Under the pieces are notes generated by a model. That model was not told the origin of the DNA. It saw nothing but the letters and a program-made list of their open reading frames with translations, and searched no databases. Position numbers and translations under genes: made by a program. DNA of 64,000 nt from a virus (Duplodnaviria > Heunggongvirae > Uroviricota > Caudoviricetes). Location of the stretch: positions 212,278 to 276,277 of IMG/VR virus record IMGVR_UViG_3300028887_000002; one strand, written 5' to 3'. How positions within the stretch are numbered: the first letter of the stretch is position 1; every line of letters starts with the position of its first letter. This document shows, one piece after another, positions 3,134-52,559 of the stretch.

Positions 3134-3553
3134 TTATTTTCTCCAGAATGAAACAATAAACGAATTAGCGTCAATATCATCAATTGTGCAATAGATGCCG
3201 AACTTATCCGTACCTCTGTTTATAGTTTTGTCCATATTTCTCATCATGCTATCCATCGGTTCATTGTCAAATGCACCAGTATAGTCACTCAAGAATGAAA
3301 CCTTAATGGCATTACCACCCATTTTCCATTCAACAACAGCCAATCCGTTTCCGTATGTACCTATGATAATTGGGTGTTGGTTTGTATATTTCGGCATACG
3401 GTAAGGGACATCAAGCAAGTCGTATATCCAGTCAGTTGTAATTTCCTTGCCGTCGATATAGGCTGGCTGGCGGTTGTTATTCATACTTTCGTTTAAAATA
3501 CGTTTCATACTGTTTTTTACTGCGTCACGTATTTGTTTCTCAGTTATCTCCAT
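3134..3553 (-). CDS. hypothetical protein with CTS-like N-terminal motif MEITEKQIRDAVKNSMKRILNE (start taken at the ATG at 3553 rather than the TTG at 3559)
   Basis: N-terminal 22 aa align position by position with the N-termini of the 48840..49190 and 38156..38800 proteins. ATATTTATT element 21 nt upstream. Confidence 0.6.
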   Translation of the reverse strand: MEITEKQIRDAVKNSMKRILNESMNNNRQPAYIDGKEITTDWIYDLLDVPYRMPKYTNQHPIIIGTYGNGLAVVEWKMGGNAIKVSFLSDYTGAFDNEPMDSMMRNMDKTINRGTDKFGIYCTIDDIDANSFIVSFWRK

Positions 3554-3574
3554 ATTCAATTAAATATTTTTTAA

Positions 3575-3615
3575 TAAATATTTGGTTGTTTGAAAAATAG
3601 TTTATATTTTTGCCA
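3575..3615 (+). promoter_or_regulatory. Bacteroidota-type promoter (TTTG 3581..3584, TATTTTTG 3605..3612, 20-nt spacing); part of a conserved divergent promoter block that is also present at 24364..24456
   Basis: Matches the -33 TTTG / -7 TAnnTTTG consensus. The ~60-nt block is about 80% identical to 24380..24440. Confidence 0.6.
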
Positions 3616-3643
3616 CGAATTTTAAAAATGAAAGGGTTATATT

Positions 3644-8350: not shown

Positions 8351-9180
8351 TGGAAAATATGGCTAATTTTAACGATATTGCAGTAATTGTTCCACTGCAT
8401 AAGATTGACGAAAACAACGATAAGAAGTATATGGACGATTCATACAACAGTGTTGTTGAATGCCGTAAGTTTTATAATGGAAGCCTTGACTTGGTTTATG
8501 TTGTTGCCCCAGAAGTTGAAACTTATATCAAGAGTTTCCTTGAAGGCAAGGTAGGTTGCAATTACATTGTTAACACCACTGGCGAGACTGACTTCTGTTC
8601 ACAGATAAACTTTGCTGTCGATAATATTGACGAGAAGTACCAGTATTTCAGCATACTTGAATATGATGACGTATACAGGCCGAAGTGGTTCAAGATGGCA
8701 TCGGATTATTACCGTACCAACGAACAGGTCTCCATATTTCTCCCAGTAAATATTATTCATTCATCCGATGATGAGAGATGGCAGTATGGTAATGAGTTAC
8801 CACTTGCTGGTTCGTTCAGCAACAACCTTGGGTTCATTGACAACGAATGTCTTGAAACCTATTTCAACGTAAACTTGACTGGTGGTATCTTCAACCGTGA
8901 GGACTTTGTTAGTGCTGGCAAGTACAAACCGTCAATAAAGGTTGCGTTCAACTATGAACTTTTGCTCAGAATGACAAAGAAGGAATACAAGGTTATGGTA
9001 GTTCCGAAGGAGGGTTATGTCCATATGATTGGCAGGGAAGGTTGTCTTAACATGATATATATGCAGACAATCCCCGACAAGGATGTAAAGAAATGGTTTG
9101 AACTTGCAAAAAGGGAAAGTAAGTTTGACGAGGATAGGAAGAAGGCTATTTCCAGCAAGGAAAGTGAAGACTTAAAATAA
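8350..9180 (+). CDS. GT-A fold family 2 glycosyltransferase
   Basis: N-terminal IAVIVPLH followed by a DxD-type motif (LEYDDV), typical of GT2. Confidence 0.7.
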   Translation: MENMANFNDIAVIVPLHKIDENNDKKYMDDSYNSVVECRKFYNGSLDLVYVVAPEVETYIKSFLEGKVGCNYIVNTTGETDFCSQINFAVDNIDEKYQYFSILEYDDVYRPKWFKMASDYYRTNEQVSIFLPVNIIHSSDDERWQYGNELPLAGSFSNNLGFIDNECLETYFNVNLTGGIFNREDFVSAGKYKPSIKVAFNYELLLRMTKKEYKVMVVPKEGYVHMIGREGCLNMIYMQTIPDKDVKKWFELAKRESKFDEDRKKAISSKESEDLK

Positions 9181-9201
9181 GAAGACTTATGTTGATACGC
9201 C

Positions 9202-9987
9202 GTGAACGACAATGCCAATATTACTACAACGCAGGAAGTTGCAACTCCAAAGAAACGGGGGCGCAAACCAAACCCAGATAAGCGGAAGATGTATTTTGAC
9301 GCAAGGGAAGAAGAGGCGTTCAGACAGTATCTGACAACCACCGACAAGGCAGAGAAGGATGAGATTTTCCACAAGATACTTTATCCTGCTCTGTCCAAGA
9401 TGGTGGAATGTATCATTAGGCGCTACAATCTGTCAACACCAAATGAAGATTACGAGAGTACGTTTAAAGATACGTTGTCATTCCTGATAACCAAGACCAG
9501 CACTTTTAACCCTGAAAAGAACAAGAAGGCTTATTCCTACTGCGGTACAATCTGCAAGAACTACCTCATATTCAAGATGACTGCCTATTCAAAGAAGGAA
9601 TCAAAGAACTCTTCCTACGAAACGGTCTATAATGAGCATAATCCCGATGTCCGTTCAAGTGAGGAAAGGGAAACTGAAACAACGGAATTCAACCAGGAAT
9701 TGTTGGAGTTGATGAGACTGCGTCTCTCACAGTACCTTGAGAAGAAATCAAACTTGAACGAGAATGAACGCAAGGTAGGGTATGCATTATGCGAACTCCT
9801 TGAACATTGGGATGAGATATTTAATAACTTTGACGGTGATGAGACGAAGAAGTACAACAAGACCAACGTTCTCTACTATATCAAGGAGAATACGCTGTTG
9901 ACAACAACCGAGGTACGAAATGCCATGAAGATGTACAAGAAGTTGTACCGCAACACCAAGAAACGCTTCTTGGATAGCCAAATTTAG
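9202..9987 (+). CDS. sigma-70 family (region 2-like) factor with N-terminal AT-hook-like basic tract (KKRGRKPNPDKRK)
   Basis: DYESTFKDTLSFLITKTSTFNPEKNKKAYSYCGTICKNYLI matches sigma region 2.1-2.2 (FDP..g..FSTYA..I). Size 261 aa. Confidence 0.55.
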   Translation: MNDNANITTTQEVATPKKRGRKPNPDKRKMYFDAREEEAFRQYLTTTDKAEKDEIFHKILYPALSKMVECIIRRYNLSTPNEDYESTFKDTLSFLITKTSTFNPEKNKKAYSYCGTICKNYLIFKMTAYSKKESKNSSYETVYNEHNPDVRSSEERETETTEFNQELLELMRLRLSQYLEKKSNLNENERKVGYALCELLEHWDEIFNNFDGDETKKYNKTNVLYYIKENTLLTTTEVRNAMKMYKKLYRNTKKRFLDSQI

Positions 9988-21191: not shown

Positions 21192-21956
21192 CTAGAATAG
21201 ATATTCGTTCTCACTATGGATAGTATTCGCATCCCGTACACTTCCCCAGACCATAAGGTCTCTAAGTTCTGGCGGATTGCCGTAGAAGATGACCCTGTTG
21301 TTCTTTTTGTCCTCAACATATCTGCAATAGCAATCTTCGGCATTGTCCATCAACCTATATAAGTCGAACCTATAGCCGTCCCTTAATTTAGGTTTCACTT
21401 CGTTTCCACTTTCACTGTTGACAAACTTCACCTTCACATCGTCAACCATAATGCTTTCGGTCAACAGTTGTTTCCAAGTTGTTTTCTTATGGGTATCTTC
21501 GTAGAGCATTCTGATTACATTCTCGTCAAGGTTTACCTTCTTGTGCATATGTTTTGAAGGTGCGTCCACAATGTCCTTCTGGCACTTTTCAGTCCAGTTT
21601 CTGAACAGTATGTTGCCGTCCTTGTAGGCTTCCTCCTCAAACGGAACGAGGTTGCTGTCCTCGCTGGTCTTGTCGGACGAAAATCTGCCCATATCGAGCC
21701 TGTTCTCAAGGTTCTGGCAGTGATGTATCATCTCGTGTGCAAAACTCCTTAAAACGTCCTTAGGATGCCTGTCCCTGATGAACAGGACAATCGTATAGAT
21801 GTCGGGTCTGTAGTACCCTGTGCGTATGAATACGCCGTCCTGCTTCCTGTTGGTGAGTTTTACCTTCGGGAAGGGCTTGCAGGTTATGTTGTCGGCTATG
21901 AAGTTGGCCAACGACTTGATGTATGGTATGTAGTTGAAATGCTTCTTGGTTTTCAT
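21192..21956 (-). CDS. putative zinc metallopeptidase (HExxH: FAHEMIHHCQ), SprT/ImmA-like
   Basis: Single HExxH motif in a 254-aa ORF. Confidence 0.4.
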   Translation of the reverse strand: MKTKKHFNYIPYIKSLANFIADNITCKPFPKVKLTNRKQDGVFIRTGYYRPDIYTIVLFIRDRHPKDVLRSFAHEMIHHCQNLENRLDMGRFSSDKTSEDSNLVPFEEEAYKDGNILFRNWTEKCQKDIVDAPSKHMHKKVNLDENVIRMLYEDTHKKTTWKQLLTESIMVDDVKVKFVNSESGNEVKPKLRDGYRFDLYRLMDNAEDCYCRYVEDKKNNRVIFYGNPPELRDLMVWGSVRDANTIHSENEYLF

Positions 21957-22216
21957 TACTTCAACAATTTGCTTCTAATCTGACGCATTACTGATTCGGT
22001 TATCTGGTCAACATATCTGTCAACGCTTTCGTCCTTTGAGGATTTTACTCGTTCGGGAAGTCCTTTGTCTTTGGTTTTTGCAAACTTGCGTACTTCTTTC
22101 CTTGTCATTGAGTCTGCGGCTTTCTTTACCTCTGGACTTGCATTATCCAGTTCGCCCTTCTTGTAGGCATCAACTAACCTGAAAAAGCGGGCCTGTTTCT
22201 TACTCTTCGCTGGCAT
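21956..22216 (-). CDS. small lysine-rich hypothetical protein (86 aa)
   Basis: ORF whose start overlaps the downstream gene by 1 nt. Confidence 0.45.
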   Translation of the reverse strand: MPAKSKKQARFFRLVDAYKKGELDNASPEVKKAADSMTRKEVRKFAKTKDKGLPERVKSSKDESVDRYVDQITESVMRQIRSKLLK

Positions 22217-22233
22217 TGGTTTAAATATTTATA

Positions 22234-24363
22234 TTAGTTATTATATTCATCTTCGACTTCTTCTTCACCAAAACCATAATATTCGTCTTCCACCTCAACT
22301 GGTCTGAAATGCCCATATTCATCCTTTACGTATTCATTGTAGTCCTCATCACGATACAACGGTTCGTCATCCTCACGGTTCATCATCTCCCAACCATGTG
22401 GAACTCTAGTGTTATGGGGTTCAAACCATTCGTTAGGACGATGTTCCTCATCTGACGGATATTCAATATCACCTCTCTGGTTCATCTGTATTTCAAAATT
22501 ACCAAGCCCATACATTTCATTGATTACTCGCTTGACACCGTTTGAGATAACCCTCTTCAACTGGGATTCTGTTAGTCTTATAGTTCTCTTTGTCATATTA
22601 TTATAATTTTTGTTATAATTATTTTCGTTAATTCTGCGATTATATAATGAGTTAGGATTCTTTTTTTCAAGTTCTTGAATCTTCAGATTTATAACGTCCT
22701 GTTTACGAACCAATTCATTCGGGAGATTTCTCAATATTTCATCCCTCTTGGCATTGGCTTCAGCAAGCGCGTCGTTTAGTAACTGTTCGTTCTTCGGTTC
22801 CGCAGTCCATTTGTCCACAAACCAATCTGACCACTCGTCATGCATTGCCCCGCACTCATTATAGACTCGTGTGTAGGGATATTCGTGGTTTCTGAAGATT
22901 TCAACCAAACAGTCATTTCCTGTTTTATATGCGTTTCCCAAATCAGTGTTCACATTCACAATATTCTTTACCAAAAAATCATCTATTTCACTTTGGATTT
23001 TCAAATATTCAGACCTTAATAAGTCTTTTTCTTTCACATATTCTTCAAACGCAATCTGTTCGGGACTTACATAATCATTGAAATATTCAGCGACTGTTTC
23101 AGGGGAATAATAGTTCGTCCTATTCCCATACATACTGGTGTGATGCCATTCATCGGGGGTTATGTTCGGCAGTTCCCTTTTGATTCGTGCAACCGAAACC
23201 TTCACACTGCCGTTATTTTGTTTGATTAGATTATTCACCTCCTCAGCAAATTCTCTTCCAATCTGCGACTTGTTTCTCAGCCCACGGCTTTCAGCATCAA
23301 CAGCCCTTCGGCTTTTTGAATAGCCGACATAACCGCTGTTACCACCGAAGTATCTCCTTCCTTCATTCACATCATAGAACACCTCGTCGTTCCGTAGCAG
23401 TTCCAACGAAGCCTTTTCCATCTCGGAAGGTTCCCTTGGCGGAAAGTCTCTCTTAGGTATTGTGAACCCAGGTTCCTTGCGTTCGTAGTCATCCTTCGGT
23501 TTAGGTCTCAAATCAGACAAAATGTGATTTATCCTTTCACGGTTTCTAGTGAAGAGATTTCTAACCAAGAGTTTGTTATACAGTGGTTTTCCATTGACCT
23601 CTATTGTATAGGCTTTATTACCAAACACATCGAGCGCACTACAGATTGCGTTGGCTTCATAGGTGTTAATCTTGTCGTCCCTCATCACTGACCTTAATAT
23701 TGTTATGACTCCAGTATAAAACGTGTATTTATTTTCGCCATCCAACGATTTCTTAACCTCGTTCACGCTTTCAACGGTGTCAATCCTTATAAACTTTTCG
23801 TTAAGTTTCTTAACATTGAATATGACATATATATCATCTTCCCTATAACCATCATAACCCAGTTTCAACAGCATATCGGCAATGAACGGAATATAGTTGC
23901 TTGGGACGTGGCTATACCATAACTCCCTCATACTTGAAGGCTTTTTCCACTTGACAATATCAATTATGCGTTCAGTTATGCTGTCGCAAACAATGCTCTT
24001 GTAGAAATCATTTGTTTTGTTGATTTCCGTCTCGTACATATCATAGTCACGGTTGTTCCTTACTTCGCTTTGCTTGTTTCGAAGCCATTGTAGGTCATCT
24101 TCCGCATTGATAACGTCTTTAAAAACCTCTGTTGGGTTTGCGTTGGTACTGACAAAGTTAAACTCATCAGCCTTTACCGCATAGAACTTCGTGCCGTAGT
24201 CCAGCGCCTTTGACGGACGTGACGTGAAATAGAAGCCGTAGCCCTCACCAGCCCTAAACCCACCTTTTATGAAGGATGAATCGAACTTATCTATGTCTAG
24301 GTTCGTGCCGTGTACAATATAACCATTTCCAATATATTCAGCAATGAGTTTAAACAAGTCCAT
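22234..24363 (-). CDS. 709-aa multidomain protein: N-terminal PARP-like (H-Y-E class) ADP-ribosyltransferase-like domain, Asn-rich linker, C-terminal 120-aa module (22234..22596) starting MTKRTIRLTESQLKRVI that is homologous to the CTS-like family
   Basis: YIVHGTNLDIDKFDSSFIKGGFRAGEGYGFYFTSRPSKALDY matches the PARP signature HG[ST]...I...GF...G.GIYFA..SKS..Y. The C-terminal module aligns with the N-termini of the 38156..38800 and 48840..49190 proteins and has an acidic, aromatic-rich tail. Confidence 0.5.
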   Translation of the reverse strand: MDLFKLIAEYIGNGYIVHGTNLDIDKFDSSFIKGGFRAGEGYGFYFTSRPSKALDYGTKFYAVKADEFNFVSTNANPTEVFKDVINAEDDLQWLRNKQSEVRNNRDYDMYETEINKTNDFYKSIVCDSITERIIDIVKWKKPSSMRELWYSHVPSNYIPFIADMLLKLGYDGYREDDIYVIFNVKKLNEKFIRIDTVESVNEVKKSLDGENKYTFYTGVITILRSVMRDDKINTYEANAICSALDVFGNKAYTIEVNGKPLYNKLLVRNLFTRNRERINHILSDLRPKPKDDYERKEPGFTIPKRDFPPREPSEMEKASLELLRNDEVFYDVNEGRRYFGGNSGYVGYSKSRRAVDAESRGLRNKSQIGREFAEEVNNLIKQNNGSVKVSVARIKRELPNITPDEWHHTSMYGNRTNYYSPETVAEYFNDYVSPEQIAFEEYVKEKDLLRSEYLKIQSEIDDFLVKNIVNVNTDLGNAYKTGNDCLVEIFRNHEYPYTRVYNECGAMHDEWSDWFVDKWTAEPKNEQLLNDALAEANAKRDEILRNLPNELVRKQDVINLKIQELEKKNPNSLYNRRINENNYNKNYNNMTKRTIRLTESQLKRVISNGVKRVINEMYGLGNFEIQMNQRGDIEYPSDEEHRPNEWFEPHNTRVPHGWEMMNREDDEPLYRDEDYNEYVKDEYGHFRPVEVEDEYYGFGEEEVEDEYNN

Positions 24364-24389
24364 AATAAATGAAAATATTTTCTAATAAA

Positions 24390-24425
24390 TATTTGGTGTA
24401 TTGAAAAATAACAATTATTTTTGCC
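24390..24425 (+). promoter_or_regulatory. Bacteroidota-type promoter (TTTG 24393..24396, TATTTTTG 24416..24423); second copy of the conserved divergent promoter block
   Basis: Same architecture and about 80% identity to 3575..3615. It drives the small ORF at 24457 and, by read-through, tnpB. Confidence 0.6.
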
Positions 24426-24456
24426 ACGATTTTTGAAAGAAAAATATAAAAACAAA

Positions 24457-24592
24457 TGGCTGACACGAAACTGACTATAGAAGAGATAGAAGTAGCACTT
24501 GCGGAGTCAAGGGATTTCAGTTATCTGAAGAACCTTATGGTATTCAATGTCTATGGATTATTGAAAAAATTTAAAAAGTTACCTATTTTTTA
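24457..24592 (+). CDS. small ORF (44 aa, MADTKLTIEEIEVALAESRDFSYLKNL...) immediately downstream of the promoter and ending at the IS junction
   Basis: Open frame ending 14 nt before the GC-rich IS. Its C-terminus may have been altered by the insertion. Confidence 0.35.
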
Positions 24593-24605
24593 ATAAAAGA
24601 AAAAA

Positions 24606-25950
24606 ACTTGATACGCAACTACACATACCGCCTCTACTCCTCCAAGCACCACAAGGCTTTGGCGAGCCTCATCACGACGGCAAACCACACGTGGAACCAT
24701 ATCGTCGCCCTGTGCCACAGGTACTACCGCCGATACGGGAAGTCCGTGTCGGAGGGACAACTGAAGCGCCACATGGCGAAGATGGCGAAGAGGGACAGGT
24801 ATATGTCAAAGTTGCACTCACAGTCGCTCCAGGCAATATGTGAACGGTACGAGGACGCGCTGAAACAAGCCTTCAAGATAAAGGGTCGTGGATTGCCCCA
24901 CGCCCGAAGGATGTTCGGGAAAGGCTCGGTGCTGTTCAAGGGCAACGGTGGGTATGTCCTTGAAGCCGTAGGCAACAAGGGCGTACTGCGCATAAACAAA
25001 CTGGGGAAAAACTGGAAGTTCCGCTTCAAACTAACACGTCAGTGGGGCGAGGTAAGGAACGTCACGGTAAAAAGGGATGAAGACGGCTACTACTACCTGA
25101 CGGTATGCTGCAACGTCCCCGACGAACATCTCGAAAGGGAAGGTTACGCCTCCATCGGGATGGACTTCGGGATGAAGACGTTCCTCACGCTGTCGGACGG
25201 CACTGCCGTGCAGATTCCCGACTACCACAGGAAGGCGCTTGCCGAACTGAAGGCTGCCGACAGGTCGCTGTCGCACAAGCGCAACGCAAAGGTCTATGGT
25301 TCATCATACCGCAGGGCGAAACACCACAGGCAGGTCGCCTATGCCAAGGTCACCAACAGGCGGTCGGACTTCCACTGGAAACTCGCGCACGAACTGTGCA
25401 GGAAGTACAGTTTCATCGCCATCGAGGACTTGAACATGAAGTCCATGCAGATGCACAGGAACTGGGGAAGGAAGGTCTCTTCCCTTGGGTACTCGGAGTT
25501 TGTAATGAAACTCATGGTCGTTGCAGAGAAGTACGGTACGGTCGTCCACAAGATTGACCGCTGGTATGCATCCAGCCAGACTTGCAGCAAGTGCGGGTAT
25601 GTGTACAAGGGAACGAAAGACCTTAAAGTCCGCGAGTGGACTTGTCCTGTCTGCGGTACCGTCCACGACAGGGACGTGAACGCGGCTATTAACATATTGA
25701 ATGTCGCCTTAAACGACATAAGCGGGAAGGGCGTTTCCCGCGTCGGGAGCAATAGTAAGACCCCCAAGGGGCAACCCTCGGAGGCAGTTGCGCACGGGTC
25801 TTGCGACCCCGCTACCGACCAAGAATCCCACTCACTTTGATTTGTTTTCAACAGTGGTGGGAGTACGTCAATGGGCTTCAATTGAAGCACCATATCCCAA
25901 GAAACTGTTCCTTGAACAGCAACTGGAACTTGCACGGCTCGGCAGTATGA
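24606..25950 (+). mobile_element. IS200/IS605-family tnpB-only (IS1341-like) element, GC-rich insertion
   Basis: A block of roughly 55-60% GC with abrupt boundaries in ~35% GC DNA. It contains an intact tnpB plus about 105 nt of GC-rich 3' region with a perfect 14-nt palindrome (GCTTCAATTGAAGC) consistent with a right end / omega-RNA scaffold. Confidence 0.7.
24608..25840 (+). CDS. tnpB: TnpB (OrfB) RNA-guided RuvC-like nuclease, apparent TTG start
   Basis: N-terminal YTYRLY resembles the TnpB start. RuvC-I is GMDFG, RuvC-II is AIEDLN, the zinc finger is CSKCG...CPVCG and RuvC-III is DRDVNAAINI. Confidence 0.85.
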   Translation: MIRNYTYRLYSSKHHKALASLITTANHTWNHIVALCHRYYRRYGKSVSEGQLKRHMAKMAKRDRYMSKLHSQSLQAICERYEDALKQAFKIKGRGLPHARRMFGKGSVLFKGNGGYVLEAVGNKGVLRINKLGKNWKFRFKLTRQWGEVRNVTVKRDEDGYYYLTVCCNVPDEHLEREGYASIGMDFGMKTFLTLSDGTAVQIPDYHRKALAELKAADRSLSHKRNAKVYGSSYRRAKHHRQVAYAKVTNRRSDFHWKLAHELCRKYSFIAIEDLNMKSMQMHRNWGRKVSSLGYSEFVMKLMVVAEKYGTVVHKIDRWYASSQTCSKCGYVYKGTKDLKVREWTCPVCGTVHDRDVNAAINILNVALNDISGKGVSRVGSNSKTPKGQPSEAVAHGSCDPATDQESHSL

Positions 25951-28223: not shown

Positions 28224-28796
28224 ATGGAAATACTAGTTAAAGAATTTTGTGATGGTTACGGACGGAATGTCAAAATCCCATCAGATGTTCTTTCCAAGGC
28301 GATTGAACGTTATAAAACTGAAACTAACAAATTGGAGAATAGTTTTGGTTGTTTGTTAGAATACAGAAAACTTCCATTACAAATGTCGGTTTCTGATATT
28401 AGTCATAAAATATCATCAATTGAACAAAACGGAGATAATAGTCTAATATGTAAGATTGAGACATTCAAATCGCCTCTCAATGTTTTGGATGAAATATTAG
28501 AAAACGAACCCGAAACACTTATGCCAGTAGTAAGCGGTTGGAAGGATGAAAATGGTGAATATAATATTCATTCAATAAATTTCGTACCAAATGTCACGGA
28601 AAATCAATTTGATTGCAAATACCAAGGCAGACTGGTCAATCAGGGAATGACATTATGCTTTGCTGATGAGGATGTCAACTTCCCGAACTGTTCGGAGGAT
28701 TGTCCTAAATATAAAAAGTACGAACCAAAAGAACCTAAATACACTACGGATGAGAATGGCAATGTAGTAATTGACTTGGTTGACGAAAATAATTAA
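28224..28796 (+). CDS. hypothetical protein (190 aa)
   Basis: ORF. Confidence 0.5.
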   Translation: MEILVKEFCDGYGRNVKIPSDVLSKAIERYKTETNKLENSFGCLLEYRKLPLQMSVSDISHKISSIEQNGDNSLICKIETFKSPLNVLDEILENEPETLMPVVSGWKDENGEYNIHSINFVPNVTENQFDCKYQGRLVNQGMTLCFADEDVNFPNCSEDCPKYKKYEPKEPKYTTDENGNVVIDLVDENN

Positions 28797-28809
28797 AAAA
28801 AGTGAATTA

Positions 28810-29793
28810 ATGGAAATTATTCAAACAACTTTCAATTTCACCCCGACAATTACCTTCATTGACTTGTTCGCTGGCATAGGCGGATTTCGCAAGGCGCTTG
28901 AAAGTCTTGATTGCAAGTGTGTGTTTTCATCGGAAATTGATAATGATGCAAGACAGACATATCTGACAAATTACGGAGACCTTCCGTCTGGCGACATAAC
29001 GTTGGAAGAAACAAAAGCCTTGATACCAAAGGACGTTGATATTGTTTGTGGAGGTTTTCCCTGCCAGGCTTTCTCAATAGCAGGACTGCGTAGAGGTTTT
29101 GAGGACACAAGAGGAACTTTATTCTTTGACGTAGCAGAAATCGTGAGTACACACAAGCCAAAGGTTATTTTCCTTGAAAACGTCAAGAACCTACTATCGC
29201 ATGACAACGGCAACACCTTCAAGGTTATAAAAGAGACTTTGGAAAAATTGGGATACAAAGTCTACTATAAGGTGATGAATGCAATGGAATACGGAAATGT
29301 ACCACAAAACAGGGAACGCATATACATTGTAGCGTTCGAGCCGACAAAAGTACCCAACTACGAAAAGTTCAAGTTCCCCGAACCACTTCCTCTGACAAGA
29401 ACTGCTATGGATTGCTATGACAAACTGGATGATATTTCATCAAAATACTACTACACCGATAAATCCCCTGTCTATAACGACCTCGTGGCTAATATGAAAG
29501 ACAAGACATCCGTCTACCAGTGGAGACGTGTCGGTGAAATAAGGGAGAACAAGCACAAGGTCTGTCCTACGTTGCTTTCCTCTATGGGGTGTGGTGGCAA
29601 CAAGGTTCCATTAGTCATTGATGATAGGGGGATTAGGAAATTCACACCTACGGAATGTTTGAAGTTTCAAGGCTATGAGGATTTCAAGTTTCCCAATACA
29701 ATGTCAGATAGCGTGAAATATAGATTGATAGGAAATTCGGTGGTGGTTCCACTGATAAGACGGATTGGCGAAAATATTATCGAAGTTTTTTAA
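28810..29793 (+). CDS. DNA (cytosine-5)-methyltransferase (Dcm-like)
   Basis: Motif I FIDLFAGIGGF, motif IV GFPCQAFS and motif VI ENVKNL. Start taken at the ATG at 28810 after the upstream stop. Confidence 0.85.
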   Translation: MEIIQTTFNFTPTITFIDLFAGIGGFRKALESLDCKCVFSSEIDNDARQTYLTNYGDLPSGDITLEETKALIPKDVDIVCGGFPCQAFSIAGLRRGFEDTRGTLFFDVAEIVSTHKPKVIFLENVKNLLSHDNGNTFKVIKETLEKLGYKVYYKVMNAMEYGNVPQNRERIYIVAFEPTKVPNYEKFKFPEPLPLTRTAMDCYDKLDDISSKYYYTDKSPVYNDLVANMKDKTSVYQWRRVGEIRENKHKVCPTLLSSMGCGGNKVPLVIDDRGIRKFTPTECLKFQGYEDFKFPNTMSDSVKYRLIGNSVVVPLIRRIGENIIEVF

Positions 29794-30832: not shown

Positions 30833-30870
30833 TATTTGGTAGTTTGAAAAATATTGTTTTTCTTTGCACC
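30833..30870 (+). promoter_or_regulatory. Bacteroidota-type promoter with conserved AATATTTGGTAGTTTGAAAAAT upstream element
   Basis: TTTG at 30835..30838 and a TTTCTTTG -7-like element about 20 nt downstream. Followed by an AGAAAGGAAT Shine-Dalgarno-like sequence and the ATG at 30894. Confidence 0.5.
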
Positions 30871-30893
30871 GAATTTTAGAAGAAAGGAATTTT

Positions 30894-31580
30894 ATGACAG
30901 ACTTTAGAAACTATGCAGTGAAGGGGCTTGGCATTAGTAGCAATGCCTTCGACCAGTACACAAAAAGTGTAAGTGCAAGATACGGAACAAGTTTCGTAAA
31001 CCCCACAATCATTGAGGAGAGACAACTGAACGTTGCACAAATGGATGTGTTCTCACGCCTTATGATGGACAGAATCATATTCATTGGCACCGACATTGAC
31101 GACTACACAGCAAATGTTGTAGAGGCACAACTTTTATATTTAAGTAGCGTTGATGAGAACAAGGACATATCATTGTACCTCAACACCCCTGGCGGTAGCG
31201 TATATGATGGACTTGCAATCTACGACACAATGCAGTATGTGAAATGTGATGTATCAACCGTATGTATGGGTATGGCCGCTTCAATGGGGTCAATTCTCCT
31301 ATCGGCTGGAACCAAGGGCAAACGATATGCATTGCCACACTCACGTGTCATGATACATCAGCCACTCGGCGGTATTTCACAGGCACAATGCTCCGACATT
31401 CAGATTACAGCCAACGAAATCCAAAAGTGCAAGGACGAACTCTTCAAGATATTGTCCGAGAATACTGGACAGCCGTTGGAGAAAATAAATACCGATGGCG
31501 ACAGGGACTTCTGGATGACGGCGAACGAGGCATTGAAATATGGTATTATTGATGAGATTTTTGGAAAGCAGGGAAAATAA
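30894..31580 (+). CDS. clpP: ATP-dependent Clp protease proteolytic subunit ClpP
   Basis: YLNTPGGSVYDGLAIYD, the Ser nucleophile in GMAASMGS, His in MIHQPLGG and DRDFWMTANEALKYGIID. Near-canonical bacterial ClpP along its full length. Confidence 0.85.
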   Translation: MTDFRNYAVKGLGISSNAFDQYTKSVSARYGTSFVNPTIIEERQLNVAQMDVFSRLMMDRIIFIGTDIDDYTANVVEAQLLYLSSVDENKDISLYLNTPGGSVYDGLAIYDTMQYVKCDVSTVCMGMAASMGSILLSAGTKGKRYALPHSRVMIHQPLGGISQAQCSDIQITANEIQKCKDELFKILSENTGQPLEKINTDGDRDFWMTANEALKYGIIDEIFGKQGK

Positions 31581-31615: not shown

Positions 31616-32449
31616 ATGAACACAAGAAGATTAATCACAATCGGAATCATTTTAGCGGTAGTTATTATTCTCATGTCATGCTTTATGAGATGTTCAAAGG
31701 TTGACAGCGCAGAGGTTGGTATCAAGTTCAACAAGTTGAGCCTTACCGAACAGGGAACATTGGACGCAACAGTCGTTACGGGTTATACGTGGTACTGCCC
31801 AGTCACAACAGACCTCCATACCTATCCAGTGTTTGTACAGAGAAAGAACTACACACCATTTACGGTTAATACGAAGGACGCAGCCGAATTCACGATGGAC
31901 CCGACAATCGCCTACCAGATAAACCGTGACCGTGCCATTGACATCTTCCAGAAATACCGCAAGTCATTGGAAGAAATCGAAGACGGATATATGAGAACTG
32001 TTATCTATGACGCATACCGTATCACTGCCAATAGATATACATCCGACAGTATTATGGGCAATCGCGCCCGTTTCGAGAGCGAAGTACGCATTATGCTCGA
32101 CACAGCACTTTCTAACGAAGGATTTATGGTAACTGAGTTCACTTCGCAAATAACACCGCCAGCATCACTCCGCGCAATGATAGACTCGAAGAATGCTGCA
32201 ATACAGTCAGCACTTAAAGCCGAAAACCAAGTGAAGGAAGCAGAAGCCAATGCAAAGATTGCTGTGGCTAAGGCTGAAGGTGAAGCCCAAGCGTTGAAGA
32301 TTAAGGCTGACGGCGAAGCATATTATAACAGAACGGTAGCCGCCTCGTTGAACAGCATCCTTGTCGAACAATACGCAATTGAAAAGTGGAACGGACAGAT
32401 GCCACAGGTCACAGGCAACGGCGGAATGCCATTCATCAACTTGAAGTAA
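31616..32449 (+). CDS. SPFH/Band-7 (stomatin/HflC-like) membrane protein
   Basis: N-terminal TM helix, SPFH core and C-terminal Ala/Glu-rich coiled coil (AEANAKIAVAKAEGEAQALKIKADGEA). Confidence 0.75.
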   Translation: MNTRRLITIGIILAVVIILMSCFMRCSKVDSAEVGIKFNKLSLTEQGTLDATVVTGYTWYCPVTTDLHTYPVFVQRKNYTPFTVNTKDAAEFTMDPTIAYQINRDRAIDIFQKYRKSLEEIEDGYMRTVIYDAYRITANRYTSDSIMGNRARFESEVRIMLDTALSNEGFMVTEFTSQITPPASLRAMIDSKNAAIQSALKAENQVKEAEANAKIAVAKAEGEAQALKIKADGEAYYNRTVAASLNSILVEQYAIEKWNGQMPQVTGNGGMPFINLK

Positions 32450-38155: not shown

Positions 38156-38800
38156 TTAACGAATATAGTTGCGGATGATACGGGAAACAGTTTCATTAAT
38201 ATTATTTTCCCTCCGATTTTTCCAACCCTCACCTTTAATATAATTTGTTCTACCATGAAGATAATTGTCTATAGTATGACCTATTTCGTTATTTTGTAGG
38301 AATTCTTTATATTCATCATCGGTTTCAAAATCATATTTTTCTCTGCCTATAGGAATATCACCATATTCTTCAAACTTACCATTCCAATCAATCTTTTCCA
38401 TATCCCTATCCCAATCAATATCATGAGGACTTTTATAGTGATACCCAAAGAATACAGGCCCAGTTGCATTACTTCCGTCAGACCACCAACCATCATTATC
38501 CTTTACATATACATCATCACCTATAGGCCGTAGTGATAAATTTCTACCAAATTGTTTAGACAAACCTTTGCTAGCACTTGTACTAAAATCTCTAGCTCTA
38601 TTATCTTCTTTTTTATATTCATTCCGATTTTTATCCCAATCGTCTCGTTTGGAAGGGTCAACATACCTTTTGTAAGCAGCGTCGGCTTTTTTCTGTGCCT
38701 TTCTTGCCGCATTCATATAAGTTTTCCAATCAAGTTCGTTGATTGCTTCTCTGACAATATTCCTTAGGTCAGATTCTGTAAGTCTAATTCTTTGTTTCAT
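38156..38800 (-). CDS. hypothetical protein with CTS-like N-terminus MKQRIRLTESDLRNIVREAINE and Trp/Asp/Glu-rich body (214 aa)
   Basis: N-terminal motif shared with the proteins at 48840..49190 and 3134..3553 and with the module at 22234..22596. Late-promoter-like element upstream. Confidence 0.6.
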   Translation of the reverse strand: MKQRIRLTESDLRNIVREAINELDWKTYMNAARKAQKKADAAYKRYVDPSKRDDWDKNRNEYKKEDNRARDFSTSASKGLSKQFGRNLSLRPIGDDVYVKDNDGWWSDGSNATGPVFFGYHYKSPHDIDWDRDMEKIDWNGKFEEYGDIPIGREKYDFETDDEYKEFLQNNEIGHTIDNYLHGRTNYIKGEGWKNRRENNINETVSRIIRNYIR

Positions 38801-38923: not shown

Positions 38924-40411
38924 ATGGAAAATAGTTTTACATTCATAGATTTGTTTGCTGGTATTGGCGGATTTCACATAGCACTAAGTAACGTCGGTGG
39001 TGAATGTGTTGGTTATAGTGAAATAGCACAGGACGCAATAGAAGCATACTGCAAGAATTTTAATGAAAGCAAGGAAGATAATCTTGGTGATATAACAAAG
39101 TTAGAAACTTTACCCTGTCATGATTTTCTTACTGCTGGAGTTCCGTGCCAAAGTTGGTCGTGCGCTGGCAAGAAACTTGGATTTGACGACCAGCGCGGGC
39201 AGTTGTGGTTTAACACGCTATCTCTCTTGGAAACATCCAAACCAAAGGCGTTTATATTCGAGAATGTGAAAGGGCTGACCGAACCAAGGAATAAAGACGC
39301 ATTAGAATATATTATGAACCGTATTCGTGAGGCAGGATATTATGCAAACATTTATATACTCAATGCCTATGATTATGGTGTGCCGCAGGCTAGAATCCGT
39401 CTCTATATAGTCGGTTTTGATGACGAGAAGTATTACAAGCGGTTTAAGTTAGGCGCTACTTGTCCAGGAAGCGTACAACTTGGCGATATTCTTGATGACT
39501 TCAGAAGTAACGATACAAAAATTGGCAATAGCGTTAGCCTGGGACAGAGTTTATCAAGTAACGAAGATGGCATTAATGACTATTTTCTGTTTAACGACAT
39601 GAGGGGTGGTCAAACGACAATACATTCATGGGACATACAGGAGACTACTGACAGGGAGAAGAGCATATGCAATCTCCTGCTTAAAAACAGAAGGAAGGCT
39701 TATTATGGCAATTTGGATGGCAATCCATTATCTTTTGAACATTTCAAGGAACTAGATGAGACGATTACCAACGACGAACTTGAAGAACTGGTTAATAAGC
39801 ATATTTTCAGAAAAGTCCCATATACTTATCAAATTATTGATATTGGAAAGACTGAAACTGACTTTGAAAGACTCTTGACAAGCCTTTCAATTGACGATAT
39901 CATAAAGGTATATGACGTTAAGAACAATCGTGCAGTGAAAAAGACGGGAATAAATGTAGTCAAACAATTGTCCGATATGGAGAATAAGGGCATAGTGAAA
40001 TTAGTTGAAACAAGATACGATTTCAAAAATGCAAAGGCAAGCACTGGCATTAATGGGGTTAACCGAATTTTTCTACCTACATCAAAGATATATCCGACAC
40101 TCGTCGCAAGTGATTCCGCTGACTACATCTCGACAGTCGGCATAGAAGTCGGTCCACCCGAAGCATTCAAGAGAAAGTTTCTTGAAAAGGTTTATGCTCC
40201 GCATAATTTTAGAAAGATAACCAAGGAAGAGGCTTGCAGAATACAGTCGTTCCCCGATAATTTCATATTACCCGAAACACGGGCAAGATGGATGAAACTG
40301 CTAGGCAACAGCGTATGTCCAAAGGTAGTTCAGATGATTGCCCAAAGCGTAGTTGATACAGGTATTTTTAAAAAAAAAGTAAACTTCACTGCCCAATTAC
40401 GAACGTTTTAG
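38924..40411 (+). CDS. DNA (cytosine-5)-methyltransferase with large variable target-recognition region (495 aa)
   Basis: FIDLFAGIGGF, GVPCQSWS and ENVKGL. Confidence 0.85.
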   Translation: MENSFTFIDLFAGIGGFHIALSNVGGECVGYSEIAQDAIEAYCKNFNESKEDNLGDITKLETLPCHDFLTAGVPCQSWSCAGKKLGFDDQRGQLWFNTLSLLETSKPKAFIFENVKGLTEPRNKDALEYIMNRIREAGYYANIYILNAYDYGVPQARIRLYIVGFDDEKYYKRFKLGATCPGSVQLGDILDDFRSNDTKIGNSVSLGQSLSSNEDGINDYFLFNDMRGGQTTIHSWDIQETTDREKSICNLLLKNRRKAYYGNLDGNPLSFEHFKELDETITNDELEELVNKHIFRKVPYTYQIIDIGKTETDFERLLTSLSIDDIIKVYDVKNNRAVKKTGINVVKQLSDMENKGIVKLVETRYDFKNAKASTGINGVNRIFLPTSKIYPTLVASDSADYISTVGIEVGPPEAFKRKFLEKVYAPHNFRKITKEEACRIQSFPDNFILPETRARWMKLLGNSVCPKVVQMIAQSVVDTGIFKKKVNFTAQLRTF

Positions 40412-40475: not shown

Positions 40476-41609
40476 ATGGCAAAGGAAACTGAAAAGATGG
40501 AAAACAAGTTTGAATTGTATTCACCGAAGGAAATCAAGGCTCACCTTGACAACCACGTAATCGGACAGGAAGAAGCAAAGAAGATACTGTCGGTTGCAAT
40601 ATACAACCACTACAAGCGTATGCTTTCGACGAAGTATGACATCGGCAACGACAATCCAGCATACAAGGATGTGACAATAGAGAAGTCCAACATCATACTG
40701 CTCGGCAACACTGGTACTGGAAAGACATTCCTCGTACAGACAATTGCAAAGATGCTCGGTGTACCCCTGTTCATACAGGACTGCACCAAACTGACCGAAA
40801 GCGGTTATGTGGGAGAGGATGTAGAGAACTGCGTTGGCGGACTGCTTCGTGCCTGTGATTATGACGTTGAAAAGGCTGAAATGGGCATAGTAATACTTGA
40901 CGAGGTCGATAAGATTGCAAAGACCACAAAGGGCAATATGTCAATAACCCGTGACGTTGGTGGTGAAGGTGTACAGCAGGGTCTGCTGAAGATAGTTGAA
41001 GGAAGTGTTGTAGGCGTACCACCCCAGGGCGGTAGAAAGCACCCAGAACAGAAACTCGTGGAAGTCGATACACGCAACATATTGTTCATAGCACTTGGCG
41101 CATTCCCAGGCATCGACAAGGAGATTGAAAGACGTTTCAACAAGACAAGCGTTGGTTTCAGGAACTCTTCAGACACCAAGACAATATCAAACCTCACGCA
41201 GGACACAATCCTCGGCAAGGTAAAGGGCGATGACCTCAAGAACTTCGGACTTATACCAGAATTCGTAGGCAGGTTCCCAGTTATTACGCACACCAACCCG
41301 TTGAAGGTGGAGGATATGGTAAGGATTATCACCGAACCGCAGAACAGTCTTCTGAAGCAGTACCAGAAACTGATGGACATGGATAACGTTGACCTTGTGT
41401 TTACTGACGACGCCATAAGGATTGTCGCCGAGGAAGCGTTGAAGTGTGAAACGGGTGCAAGAGGTCTCAGGGGCATAATGGAACAGATACTCACCGACGT
41501 GATGTATGAATATGCCGAAACAAAAAAGAATACCAAACTCAAGATTGACAAGGCGTTCGTTGAAAAAATCCTCGGAGAGAAGGAAACACTTTACGGTGAA
41601 ACGGCTTAA
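40476..41609 (+). CDS. clpX: ClpX-like AAA+ unfoldase lacking the N-terminal C4 zinc-binding domain
   Basis: Walker A GNTGTGKTF, pore-1 loop GYVGEDVE, Walker B IVILDEVDKI, VGF in place of the IGF ClpP-docking loop, LIPEFVGRFPV and sensor-2 TGARGLR. Begins at the region that corresponds to about residue 60 of E. coli ClpX. Confidence 0.9.
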   Translation: MAKETEKMENKFELYSPKEIKAHLDNHVIGQEEAKKILSVAIYNHYKRMLSTKYDIGNDNPAYKDVTIEKSNIILLGNTGTGKTFLVQTIAKMLGVPLFIQDCTKLTESGYVGEDVENCVGGLLRACDYDVEKAEMGIVILDEVDKIAKTTKGNMSITRDVGGEGVQQGLLKIVEGSVVGVPPQGGRKHPEQKLVEVDTRNILFIALGAFPGIDKEIERRFNKTSVGFRNSSDTKTISNLTQDTILGKVKGDDLKNFGLIPEFVGRFPVITHTNPLKVEDMVRIITEPQNSLLKQYQKLMDMDNVDLVFTDDAIRIVAEEALKCETGARGLRGIMEQILTDVMYEYAETKKNTKLKIDKAFVEKILGEKETLYGETA

Positions 41610-41729: not shown

Positions 41730-43280
41730 TCAATCTTTCTTCTTCCATACATACTTGAACAGCCCGCAGTTCCATACACGGTCGTAGCCCAACTCACGGG
41801 TCATCTCGGTCTCGGTCATTGTAAGGGGAAGTCCGTATTTCTTATGGAGTATCTGCTTTCTAAACAAAAACTTATGGTATCTCTTGCATTCCCCTGTCTT
41901 ATAATATGTATAGTCTGGTTCGGTAATACTTTCAAGTTCAAATCCAAGATGTGTATATAGATTATCCGATGGGTTCAATGTCCACCTCCTGTCAGCAAAC
42001 GACTTTACTATTGTCGGGTTATAGTTCTTTATAAAATAAGAAAACAACTTTCCACCAACACCCTGACATATATATCGGCTGTCAGTCGCAAACCTCACAA
42101 GATTCCATTCTTCACCATTCTTTGTAAAAGACATAACCCCAATGAGAATATTTTCATAGTATGCACCAACATGGATGGTAGAATTCGCAAAACCCTGTAT
42201 GTGGTTGGCGTTTAAAAATGCTTCAGCGGTCTTCTTATCAAGAACACTTATATTGCATTTCCTTCCGCCAACTTTTGGCTTTGAATCATCATCAATTCCA
42301 AGCGAGTGGCATATCTTGTCGAATATTATATCCTTATGTTGTACATATTCATCCTCGAATATCTGAATAAGTCCGACACCCTTGCTATTGGCCAATAGTG
42401 TCTTGTTAAGGTGATATGACTTGTCCTTTCCGCCGAACCATTCCGAATGCCATCTAAGACCGTTATATTCAATCCCCACATTGAAACTGGGTATATATAT
42501 GTCAACCTCCAGTCCGTCAAGCAACGATTTGTCGTGTAATATAACCTTATCCTCACCCAACTTGTTGCATAGCATTTCATATATTTCAAGTTCGGCGTAT
42601 GAAAGGTGTTTCCCGCATTTAGGACAACCCTTCCCCTGCAATAACGCATCAGGATTCATTTTAAACACTCCGTGGGGCTTCCCGTTGGAACCAATCTTGT
42701 TACATATTATACTGACATCAATTTGGCTTGCCTTGTAGTCGACCAATGAATAGTCGTAGTCATCGTCCTTATGAACAGCCTTGCACTTCTCAATGAATGT
42801 TTCATTGTCATATCTGTTCCTTTCAGCATTCCTGTCAATTGTCAATCTCTTATGCGAACAACCTTTCAGATGCACCACTGGTTCCTGCCAGAATTCGCCA
42901 TACTCATTACCATCCGCATCAAGTTCACGACATATTATACAGACTGGTGTATGCATATTGACATATTCAACCTTAGAATAGTCAAGTTTCTCCCCCTTAT
43001 GCACCTGCTTGAAGCGTTCAACAACTTCCTCCGTTGTAAGCGACTTAGACCTTGAAATCTTATTGCCACGTTTCCTTGGGTGCGACTGCCCCTTGAACAG
43101 GTTGTTTGGTGTTGCCTTGAAAGCACCATATTCCTTACCGTTCTCGTCAAGGTCACGGTCTATTATAATGACGTTTGTTCGGTTGTTCACATATACGACC
43201 TCCGAAAAGTCAAGGTTCTCGTTGGGGTGGGACGCCTTGACCTTCTCAATGAACTCGTCCATTGTCATTCGCCTACTCAT
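41730..43280 (-). CDS. multi-domain nuclease-like protein, paralog 1 (three N-terminal ~55-aa Cys/His repeats, PD-(D/E)xK Vsr/DUF559-like core DIYIPS..IEYNG..WH, conserved C-terminal tail)
   Basis: Internal repeats FIEKxKxVH..DYSxVxY...IIC...G..HG.F..P..LL.G.GCPKCG. The C-terminal 40 aa are almost identical to those of the next gene (LHKKYGLPLTMTETEMTRELGYDRVWNCGLFKYVWKK). Confidence 0.55.
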   Translation of the reverse strand: MSRRMTMDEFIEKVKASHPNENLDFSEVVYVNNRTNVIIIDRDLDENGKEYGAFKATPNNLFKGQSHPRKRGNKISRSKSLTTEEVVERFKQVHKGEKLDYSKVEYVNMHTPVCIICRELDADGNEYGEFWQEPVVHLKGCSHKRLTIDRNAERNRYDNETFIEKCKAVHKDDDYDYSLVDYKASQIDVSIICNKIGSNGKPHGVFKMNPDALLQGKGCPKCGKHLSYAELEIYEMLCNKLGEDKVILHDKSLLDGLEVDIYIPSFNVGIEYNGLRWHSEWFGGKDKSYHLNKTLLANSKGVGLIQIFEDEYVQHKDIIFDKICHSLGIDDDSKPKVGGRKCNISVLDKKTAEAFLNANHIQGFANSTIHVGAYYENILIGVMSFTKNGEEWNLVRFATDSRYICQGVGGKLFSYFIKNYNPTIVKSFADRRWTLNPSDNLYTHLGFELESITEPDYTYYKTGECKRYHKFLFRKQILHKKYGLPLTMTETEMTRELGYDRVWNCGLFKYVWKKKD

Positions 43281-47068: not shown

Positions 47069-47087
47069 TATAATCAATTTTTTTATT

Positions 47088-48839: not shown

Positions 48840-49190
48840 CTACCACTTCAAATCTGAGACATCATTTATCGCGTTAGGAATCTCAATTGCACCAAATTCA
48901 ATTAGTTCAATCTCCTTATTTGTGCTGTCGGCTGGATTTATCTTTCCGCTAACATCAGTGATGTCTATTATATCGTAGTGTGGAAATTCCCTGCGTACTT
49001 TTTTCACAGCTTCCTTGTCCGAACCAGTTTCAGATATTGCGGCAACAAAAATTATATCGTCAGTCTCGTTGTAACACTCAATGCACTTCACGTACAAATC
49101 ACCAATATCTTCCTTCAGTACTCTCTTGACGGATTCCTTAACAATATTGCGCAAGTCTGATTCGTTAAGTCTTATAACTTTCTTTGTCAT
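48840..49190 (-). CDS. small prohead core / internal-protein candidate with CTS-like N-terminus MTKKVIRLNESDLRNIVKESVKRVLKE (116 aa)
   Basis: Sits at the position of T4 gp67/gp68 (just upstream of the scaffold and capsid genes). Carries the shared N-terminal motif. Late-promoter-like element upstream. Confidence 0.55.
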   Translation of the reverse strand: MTKKVIRLNESDLRNIVKESVKRVLKEDIGDLYVKCIECYNETDDIIFVAAISETGSDKEAVKKVRREFPHYDIIDITDVSGKINPADSTNKEIELIEFGAIEIPNAINDVSDLKW

Positions 49191-52034: not shown

Positions 52035-52559
52035 ATGGTGAAGATGTTTAACAAAAAAAGAAAGGAAATTAATATGATTGAAAATTGGGTTTATAATGAC
52101 ATTGTCCTTTATTCAAAAGGATGGTACAAGAGCCACGGAAATATGGTAGAAGACCTTGGTTATTTGTTCACCAAGATTTACGGATGGACACCGACCACAG
52201 AGGAAGAAGTTGCAAGAATGATGCTTCGCGTTATCGACAAGTTATATGAGGCGAAGGAAGTGAAGTTTTCATCGGGTTCCTATATGAAGTCATTTGAATA
52301 TCTGTTCAATGAAATTAACCACAAAGTACGATTTTATAACAAATCATATTCATTAGCAACGATTGAGATATGTTTATCAATATTGTTTGACTTAGATACG
52401 TCCGAGATAAAGTTAAATCCACCCCACTACGGAAAGAAGGAACATTTTAGGCTTGGCGGTTTTCAAAATTATCCAATAAGTATGACCTATAGTTCCGTTT
52501 TTCATAGTAAACTATTGAAAAACATTCTTTTCCTGCTTCGCCGAGCCACAACTTCTTAG
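52035..52559 (+). CDS. hypothetical protein whose last ~10 codons lie in GC-rich IS DNA (C-terminus probably altered by the insertion)
   Basis: The AT-rich ORF runs into the GC-rich block at about 52530 and terminates inside it. Confidence 0.45.
   Translation: MVKMFNKKRKEINMIENWVYNDIVLYSKGWYKSHGNMVEDLGYLFTKIYGWTPTTEEEVARMMLRVIDKLYEAKEVKFSSGSYMKSFEYLFNEINHKVRFYNKSYSLATIEICLSILFDLDTSEIKLNPPHYGKKEHFRLGGFQNYPISMTYSSVFHSKLLKNILFLLRRATTS

Follow-up and report, generated by a model that had tools for sequence, protein, structure and literature searches.

The 64,000-nucleotide (nt) stretch analysed here, positions 212,278 to 276,277 of the IMG/VR virus record IMGVR_UViG_3300028887_000002 (hereafter the window), contains a minus-strand gene at 22234..24363 whose product is a polyvalent effector protein of an uncultured jumbo T4-like phage from gut or rumen. 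The host of the phage is probably a member of the Prevotellaceae. The protein has an N-terminal predicted ADP-ribosyltransferase (ART) domain with a His-Tyr-Asp (H-Y-D) triad, and its C-terminal module opens with a 27-residue leader that stands at the head of many unrelated proteins. The evidence tips slightly in favour of an H-Y-D ART polyvalent effector that is addressed by this leader, packaged, cleaved and injected.

The gene is a single open reading frame (ORF) of 709 residues, and its N-terminus, YIVHGTNLDIDKFDSSFIKGGFRAGEGYGFYFTSRPSKALDYG, is exactly as quoted in an earlier annotation made from the sequence alone (the initial annotation). The identical 709-residue product is encoded on four contigs from independent samples (longest 339,275 bp, JGI 3300031993; 237,576 bp, ENA), which shows that the long fused ORF is real and not an assembly artefact. 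Its presence on the 339,275-bp contig identifies the source as a jumbo phage. Also encoded in the window are a major capsid protein of the T4 type (Pfam Gp23, E 4e-71) and a DNA polymerase of family B (PolB). The nearest deposited capsid genes belong to Microcystis phage Mel-JY01, Flavobacterium phage immuto, Rhodothermus phage RM378 and uncultured huge phages. The strand opposite the gene has short ORFs only, and Rfam and tRNA scans of the 64-kb window were empty. The whole protein gave nothing at E <= 1 in a sequence search of Protein Data Bank (PDB) chains, no family in an NCBIfam scan, and a sole match, of 15% and in Streptococcus phages, among 50,697 deposited phage genomes; megablast gave no match. 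Four modules, A to D, were defined by local alignments to homologues. Each has homologues of its own. The initial annotation is supported in that the protein is modular and its last module bears the leader. The ORF and the features of its N-terminal module are as follows.

22234..24363, minus strand: whole ORF, 709 residues, ATG start, 83.7 kDa, isoelectric point 5.1, a mosaic 'polyvalent' effector
23749..24363, minus strand: module A (residues 1-205), predicted ART-PolyVal-type ADP-ribosyltransferase domain, from PF18760, profiles and an AlphaFold2 (AF2) model
24310..24312, minus strand: codon of His18, HGT motif, strand 1, first residue of the triad, invariant in a 67-sequence alignment
24229..24231, minus strand: codon of Tyr45, GYGFYF motif, strand 2, second residue of the triad, invariant in the same alignment
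23851..23853, minus strand: codon of Asp171, GYDG motif, directly before the strand at residues 172-175, third residue of the triad, likewise invariant
23863..24135, minus strand: helical insertion of about 90 residues (77-167, with VRNNRDYD) in the ART core, typical of the subfamily

The sole Pfam match of the protein is ART-PolyVal (PF18760), with E 7.3e-5 (24.0 bits) for the whole chain and E 3.8e-6 (28.1 bits) for residues 1-210 alone. A profile built from eight relatives retrieved 68 proteins, mostly standalone and about 225 residues long, from 5.8 billion sequences, and the same profile reaches the Pfam-positive proteins P0090-P0098 with E 2.9e-10 to 3.7e-4. PF18760 is matched by 23 of the 67 aligned relatives (best E 3.4e-27), and comparison of module A with the Pfam-positive set by hhalign gave a probability of 98.2% and E 3.8e-14. 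The AF2 model of the domain has a predicted local distance difference test score (pLDDT) of 91, a predicted template modelling score (pTM) of 0.84 and an ART-like strand order. His18, Tyr45 and Asp171, the residues that do not vary in the alignment, fall in or at the start of model strands 15-20, 44-47 and 172-175. The ARTs of polyvalent proteins have the His in strand 1, the Tyr in strand 2 and the Asp in strand 5, and were grouped with Tox-ART-HYD2, a clade akin to PARPs and to toxins of the diphtheria type (Iyer et al. 2017, PMC5512222). The N-terminal domain is a predicted H-Y-D enzyme of the ART-PolyVal kind and not a PARP. A search of PDB sequences with the module A profile gave nothing useful.

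The likeness to ART-PolyVal, a family of ART domains in the polyvalent proteins of phages and conjugative elements, extends beyond the triad and the HGT, GYGFYF and GYDG motifs to the setting, which in both cases is a multidomain phage protein with other polyvalent-protein modules beside the ART and a predicted delivery together with the DNA. The present domain differs in that its subfamily is divergent, stays under the gathering threshold of Pfam and carries the helical insertion. Furthermore, most of its close relatives are standalone proteins of about 225 residues, Pfam has no model for its partner modules B, C and D, and its source is a jumbo T4-like phage, whereas N4-like or MuF contexts are stressed for the family (PMC5512222).

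Module D, the leader-bearing C-terminal module, comprises residues 590-709 and begins with the following element.

22516..22596, minus strand: leader (residues 590-616), MTKRTIRLTESQLKRVISNGVKRVINE, with an internal Met as its first residue, LTE at residues 597-599 and INE at 614-616

A tblastn search of the window with module D found 50% identity over 30 residues to 48840..49190 (E 1.4e-4), a weaker match to 38156..38800 and a weak one to 3134..3559. The likeness is limited to the first 27-30 residues of the module, which correspond to the N-termini of the other proteins. The initial annotation had regarded all of module D as homologous to standalone proteins of a family defined by a capsid-targeting sequence (CTS). 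This is true of the 27-residue leader; the remainder of the module has no paralogue in the window and is found in standalone proteins elsewhere.

The leader was searched for with a degenerate DNA pattern for LTESDLHR[ILMV]VKES. The pattern found 58 stretches in IMG/VR, on contigs of up to 412 kb, and 19 stretches in GTDB genomes, mostly metagenome-assembled genomes from rumen that were binned as Prevotella or Prevotellaceae. A hidden Markov model scan of 62 loci (0.6 Mb) yielded 87 unique strong leaders, 72 of them N-terminal and 15 internal, and the Met is kept by 11 of the internal ones. The consensus is M-[NK]-K-[KQ]-[LI]-I-R-L-T-E-S-D-L-H-R-I-V-K-E-S-V-x-[RK]-[IV]-L-x-E. Of 89 copies, all have the L and E of LTE and 75 have the final Glu of [IV][LI]xE. 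Because the pattern search selected for the core motif, the conservation figures for this core are inflated; flanking positions and the additional copies in each locus are free of the bias. Conservation collapses directly past the final Glu. Codon positions 1 and 2 of the leader are constrained and position 3 is free, which indicates selection on the peptide and not on the DNA. The sequences behind the leader are very diverse, forming 64 clusters among 85, with a median length of about 100 residues, and the leader can occur twice within one protein. Comparison with the 50,697 deposited phage genomes gave one weak match, to an uncultured 484-kb phage, and a literature search for the leader string found none.

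The leader is found with other ARTs as well. Among relatives of the ART domain it is N-terminal in P0069, P0073 and others, and C-terminal in P0041, which ends with it, and in P0050. In P0047, encoded on 38 contigs, the order is ART, Asn-rich spacer, Met-initiated leader and a different cargo.

In T4, the prohead protease gp21 cuts after L/I-x-E, a 10-residue N-terminal CTS propeptide targets internal proteins (IPs) to the core, and Alt loses both N- and C-terminal propeptides (review PMC9026906). In the T4 sequences (NC_000866), with a slash at the cut, the CTS of IPII and IPIII is MKTYQEFIAE/A and the gp23 site is SFLTE/AEIGG; the Alt N-terminus is MELITELFDE. Residues 1-10 of the leader end in L-T-E and the full leader ends in [IV]-[LI]-x-E, so it contains two L/I-x-E motifs. 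The present protein has such sites at residues 7, 129, 187, 486, 533, 562, 578, 597 and 614, and four of the nine are clustered around the leader, at residues 562-616. Homologues of T4 gp21 occur in eight leader loci (E 1e-17 to 1e-21) and, more weakly, in a ninth; gp23 homologues occur in five at E <= 1e-4. One or both are present in 11 of the 58 leader loci, and some directly adjoin the leader gene. In the window, a leader gene lies directly upstream of an acidic coiled-coil protein gene and the capsid gene. The acidic protein (47131..48672, minus strand, 513 residues, directly upstream of the capsid gene) is very acidic, has coiled-coil ends and is scaffold-like by position and composition only; no T4 gp22 similarity and no family match were found for it. 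By eye, the N-terminal part of the window capsid protein, ...NLIYE/ATASD, resembles the gp23 maturation site.

The leader resembles the CTS of IPI, IPII and IPIII in being, in most of its copies, a short conserved N-terminal peptide that ends in L/I-x-E before diverse small cargo, in occurring in many copies per genome, and probably in belonging to a lineage with a gp21-type protease and a gp23-type capsid. Its first ten residues (M-x-K-K-x-I-R-L-T-E) equal MKTYQEFIAE in length. Unlike the T4 CTS, it is also found in internal and C-terminal positions, in module trains. The protein as a whole can be compared with Alt, which is likewise the ART of a phage with a T4-type head, made as a precursor of about 700 residues with terminal propeptides; the candidate propeptides here are bounded by L/I-x-E. 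The two enzymes differ in their triads, R-S-E in Alt and H-Y-D here, and are not similar in sequence (as a tblastn query, T4 Alt from NC_000866 had no match in the window at E <= 1). In phages phiKZ, 201phi2-1 and SPN3US, a gp21-related protease cuts after Glu at redundant propeptide sites (PMC9026906). These too are jumbo phages that load many head proteins, namely ejection and inner-body proteins, but their cleavage logo is S/A/G-x-E and the capsid protein here is clearly Gp23-like. We know of no common leader described for their head proteins.

A second T4-like CTS at the very start of the protein, MDLFKLIAE (residues 1-9, 24337..24363, minus strand), was considered and is probably a coincidence. 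It shares with the T4 CTS MKTYQEFIAE an aromatic residue at position 4 and the final IAE. It was rejected because the model of the ART domain places these residues in a confidently predicted helix and because the Glu varies among relatives (IAG in P0032).

By analogy with T4, an Alt-like packaged-and-injected role is plausible. The ART gene would be expressed together with the head genes, and the leader would direct the protein to the prohead core, where a gp21-like prohead protease would cut the L/I-x-E sites around the leader (residues 562-616). The WW-like acidic tail would be lost by this cleavage, just as T4 Alt sheds its terminal propeptides, and the ART-containing part would be injected with the DNA to ADP-ribosylate a host macromolecule early in the next infection. 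That phage ARTs of this class reside in multidomain virion-delivered proteins, with Alt as the analogy, was proposed in 2017 (PMC5512222). The Alt analogy is thus already anticipated for this ART class, and the leader is the more original element. We propose tentatively, with somewhat less than even confidence, that the peptide (M)xKKxIRLTESDLHRIVKESVxRILxE is the signal by which an undescribed cargo-loading system of jumbo T4-like Prevotellaceae phages addresses and processes proteins. On the same tentative footing, dozens of unrelated small proteins and enzymes, the ART among them, might be sent by it to the prohead core. It may also be, again a shade short of an even chance, that the genes are strung together as module trains whose products a gp21-like protease cuts at the two L/I-x-E sites of the leader.

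The region upstream of the gene bears on its expression, and the linker before the leader on whether module D could be made separately. The elements concerned are these.

24384..24392, minus strand: promoter-like motif ATATTTATT, about 28 nt 5' of the ATG
24416..24429, minus strand: upstream element TCGTGGCAAAAATA, within a block of about 65 nt shared with the upstream region of gene 3134..3553
22597..22629, minus strand: Asn-rich linker NENNYNKNYNN (residues 579-589), noted for its AT content

About 65 nt upstream of the ART gene (window 24364-24460) are nearly identical to a part of 3554-3650 on the minus strand, and TCGTGGCAAAAATA plus CCAAATATTTATTA have exact copies at these two upstream regions only. 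This suggests a duplicated promoter cassette. ATATTTATW occurs 13 times in the window against 3.25 expected, a count that none of 100 shuffles reached. The looser TATTTAT[AT] is found 27-42 nt 5' of the ATG of seven minus-strand genes. These encode the ART, the capsid protein, the scaffold-like protein, three further proteins with a leader, and one TnpB. The linker and the internal Met are where the initial annotation had placed them (Met at residue 590, first base 22596). With 92% A+T, compared to 60% for the gene, the 36 nt that precede the internal ATG form its most AT-rich stretch; the true 5' leaders of neighbouring genes are 86-92% A+T. At the equivalent junction of the related contig L002, the internal ATG is preceded at a distance of 28 nt by an intact TATTTATA motif; the promoter-like motif at this place in the window is degenerate, and a scan for sigma-70-type promoters found no minus-strand site upstream of 22596. 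Given the AT-richness and the L002 motif, the linker looks like the translated remnant of a former, or still usable, 5' leader or spacer.

Two contigs, L001 and L002, are syntenic with the window at about 90-96% nucleotide identity. L002 agrees with the window at 96% identity over the promoter and modules A and B, as far as window position 23372, a breakpoint at the nucleotide level. Beyond it a different leader-bearing module replaces module C, followed by module D at 82% identity and then by a further module and an additional gene. In L001 a 305-residue LRR_5 protein (8621..9538) takes the place of the ART behind the same promoter; a leader-bearing gene of 109 residues is separate, and B-X-D-Y is a gene of its own. 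Close relatives exchange modules exactly at domain borders, and the effector is replaced at one and the same locus.

The remaining parts of the protein are listed below.

23371..23748, minus strand: module B (residues 206-331), ending in a Pro-rich stretch and the motif FPPREPSEMEKASLELLRNDEVFYD
23080..23352, minus strand: module C core (residues 338-428), YFGGNSGYVGYSKSRRA...EWHHTSMYGNRT..Y, a conserved small alpha/beta domain that has no Pfam model
22654..23067, minus strand: module C extension (residues 433-570), a long helix and a region common to P0007, P0009, P0022 and P0026
22297..22404, minus strand: WW-like motif (residues 654-689), VPHGWEMMNREDDEPLYRDEDYNEYVKDEYGHFRPV, from profile comparison with PDB sequences
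22237..22296, minus strand: acidic, aromatic C-terminal tail EVEDEYYGFGEEEVEDEYNN, from sequence

In relatives, module B is the N-terminus of separate proteins of about 400 residues. Module B and many polyvalent proteins end in D-x-[VI]-x-[FY] (DEVFYD, DIRFS) directly before the next module. The module C core, with the pattern GGNSGYVGYSxSxRA...EWHHTS..GN.T, has homologues in 348 protein clusters, mostly standalone and 100-205 residues long; proteins P0134-P0253 are also of this GGNSGY...EWHHTS family. The core is also found inside proteins with MuF_C, ART-PolyVal, LPD3, LPD23, Kinase-PolyVal and InPase. These partners are a polyvalent-protein signature, and module C is one that recurs in polyvalent proteins. 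The AF2 model of the core has a pLDDT of 88.7 and matches no solved fold, and a profile search of PDB sequences gave nothing useful.

The part of module D that follows the leader contains a motif, LPxGWE...IYxDxDGNEYxKDEYGxFxP, that is present in 36 representative proteins in N-terminal, internal or C-terminal position. The module D profile matched only WW domains among PDB sequences, in 23 matches with E from 0.0037 (YAP1) to 1.6. The Pfam WW model had no match on ten module D relatives even at E <= 10, and the motif is for this reason called WW-like and no more. It has the LPxGWE...Y.D...G..F.P pattern of the WW domains of YAP1, Itch, NEDD4 and Pin1 and differs from them by a Phe or Tyr in place of Trp at the second conserved aromatic position; the E values are marginal (at least 0.004). 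The last 20 residues of the protein form the acidic, aromatic tail that had been pointed out from the sequence at the outset. Modules often end in an acidic tail with a final aromatic residue (DDEYDF, NDLDF, EEPEF and NNEF in P0001-P0006 and P0099-P0123). Such tails bring to mind the tips at the C-termini of SSB and T7 gp2.5.

Several observations weigh against the reading of the protein as a packaged and injected ART effector. Both PF18760 scores are below the gathering score of 31.2 bits. The leader has 27 residues, two L/I-x-E motifs and a sequence unrelated to that of the T4 CTS, and in the present protein it occupies an internal position, unlike the T4 CTS, which acts from the N-terminus. 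Gp21 was not found in the 64-kb window, either with Pfam and PHROGs on about 35 ORFs or by tblastn with T4 gp21. That the upstream motif marks late genes is deduced solely from the company of genes in which it is found. Most standalone relatives of the ART domain have no leader. Finally, two cultured Prevotellaceae genomes have leader ORFs with no phage genes within 8 kb. In the cultured genomes, Segatella bryantii DSM 11371 and Prevotella sp. MA2016, the leader ORFs adjoin an IS1595-like element or its fragments, and an IS1595-like transposase gene likewise abuts a leader gene on the viral contig L040 (2556..3847). The isolate ORFs may for this reason be transposed fragments. The combination of IS1595 and leader speaks for Prevotellaceae as the hosts and for leader genes that are moved by IS elements.

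Taken at face value, the leaderless ARTs and the two isolate genomes would fit an effector that is never packaged and acts in the cell that produces it, like T4 ModA and ModB or the anti-CRISPR ART AcrF11. The leader would then be a structural or oligomerisation helix or a handle for binding a partner, and the WW-like motif would serve protein-protein contacts; the leader is indeed amphipathic-helix-like and is sometimes present twice per protein. This explanation is unlikely, roughly a one-in-four matter in our judgement. It does not account for a peptide that is overwhelmingly N-terminal, precedes about 64 unrelated cargo families and ceases to be conserved at a Glu. The clustering of leader genes near gp21 and gp23 homologues and the upstream motif common to the ART, capsid and scaffold-like genes speak against it, as do the module C relatives that occur with MuF_C, a domain of phage head-associated MuF proteins (PMC5512222). 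A further possibility is that the 709-residue ORF is a recent, functionless read-through fusion of adjoining genes and that the 120-residue module is made separately from the ATG at 22596. The 5'-leader-like composition of the linker, the Met retained by most internal leaders, the L002 junction with its intact motif and the L001 locus, where the leader module is a separate gene beside the B-X-D-Y gene, are all in its favour. This is improbable, because the identical fusion is found on four contigs from independent samples, fusions of ART, spacer and leader recur with other cargo (P0047 and P0001), and in the window the motif before the internal ATG is degenerate and the sigma-70-type scan found no site there. 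Moreover, internal initiation would supplement the full-length protein and not replace it.

The initial annotation placed the predicted enzyme in the PARP/ARTD (H-Y-E) class. At the superfamily level this was right, as the N-terminal 205 or so residues belong to the H-Y-[EDQ] clade, which includes PARPs; the class itself had to be changed to ART-PolyVal. The HGT and GxGxYF motifs are PARP-like, and the top three ART-type matches of the model in a Foldseek search of the PDB are PARP4, PARP1 and PARP16, but their E values of 0.1-1.2 are not significant. No Pfam PARP model matches at E <= 1, the invariant acidic residue is the Asp of GYDG, no conserved Glu follows it in the alignment of the subfamily, and hhalign ties the domain firmly to ART-PolyVal. 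A PARP/ARTD-type enzyme, possibly one that makes poly-ADP-ribose, is accordingly disfavoured to the point of being very improbable. The profile and structure check suggested for residues 1-200 had a divided outcome, with homology to PF18760 and a confident ART-like model on one side and the insignificant Foldseek matches on the other. The absence of a catalytic Glu, which had been named as evidence against an ART, is no objection, because Asp171 is normal for ART-PolyVal.

To our knowledge, the ARTs in phage polyvalent proteins, predicted in 2017, remain almost untested. The present gene is a clean and intact example of an ART-polyvalent protein from a jumbo T4-like phage, and its locus displays both the exchange of cassettes where modules meet and fusions by which spacers become linkers. 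If the leader is a capsid-targeting propeptide, the T4 CTS principle extends to a large group of uncultured phages. Sequence alone would then mark the proteins delivered into Prevotella-type hosts, that is, the injected proteome of these phages, and the leader would be a portable tag with which such capsids could be loaded with foreign proteins.

Mobile elements and other genes surround the locus. An IS605-type TnpB element with a higher G+C content (0.48) lies just upstream of the ART gene at about 24561-25872 (ORF 24608..25840, plus strand). It is absent from L001, from L002 and from the ENA contig with the identical 709-residue gene, and the insertion is thus polymorphic. A second TnpB/IS605 OrfB copy (52512..53741, minus strand) has the TATTTATA motif 28 nt upstream. 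Besides L040, the loci that show the combination of IS1595 and leader, or fragments of it, are L077 (6889-7281), L079 (4692-6223), L069 and L081. The capsid protein (45125..47077, minus strand) has 650 residues and a large insertion at about residues 100-390 relative to T4 gp23. Two large HNH/homing-endonuclease-like genes (41730..43280 and 43273..44958, minus strand; PHROG 559/3339) are positioned directly downstream of its gene. The plus strand carries genes for a ClpP protease (30864..31580), a Band_7/SPFH protein (31616..32449) and a ClpX/ClpB-like AAA+ ATPase (40476..41609), as well as two genes for C5-cytosine DNA methyltransferases (28771..29793 and 38924..40411). The ClpP-Band_7 pair is also present on L001.

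Two minus-strand genes are found on the downstream side of the ART gene. The more distant one (21192..21956) encodes a 254-residue protein with an HExxH-like motif, HEMIHH, and is truncated relative to its counterparts of 456 residues on L002 (6711-8081) and 372 residues on L001 (12227-13345). The extra C-terminal part of these relatives resembles a kinase glycine loop by eye (LGSGSSRVVY...VLKLAK); Pfam finds nothing. The gene next to the ART gene (21956..22216) encodes a DUF3008 protein that belongs to the same module network. At loci L027 and L054, a leader and its cargo are joined directly to a DUF3008-like end (KHKGLPEKVEE).

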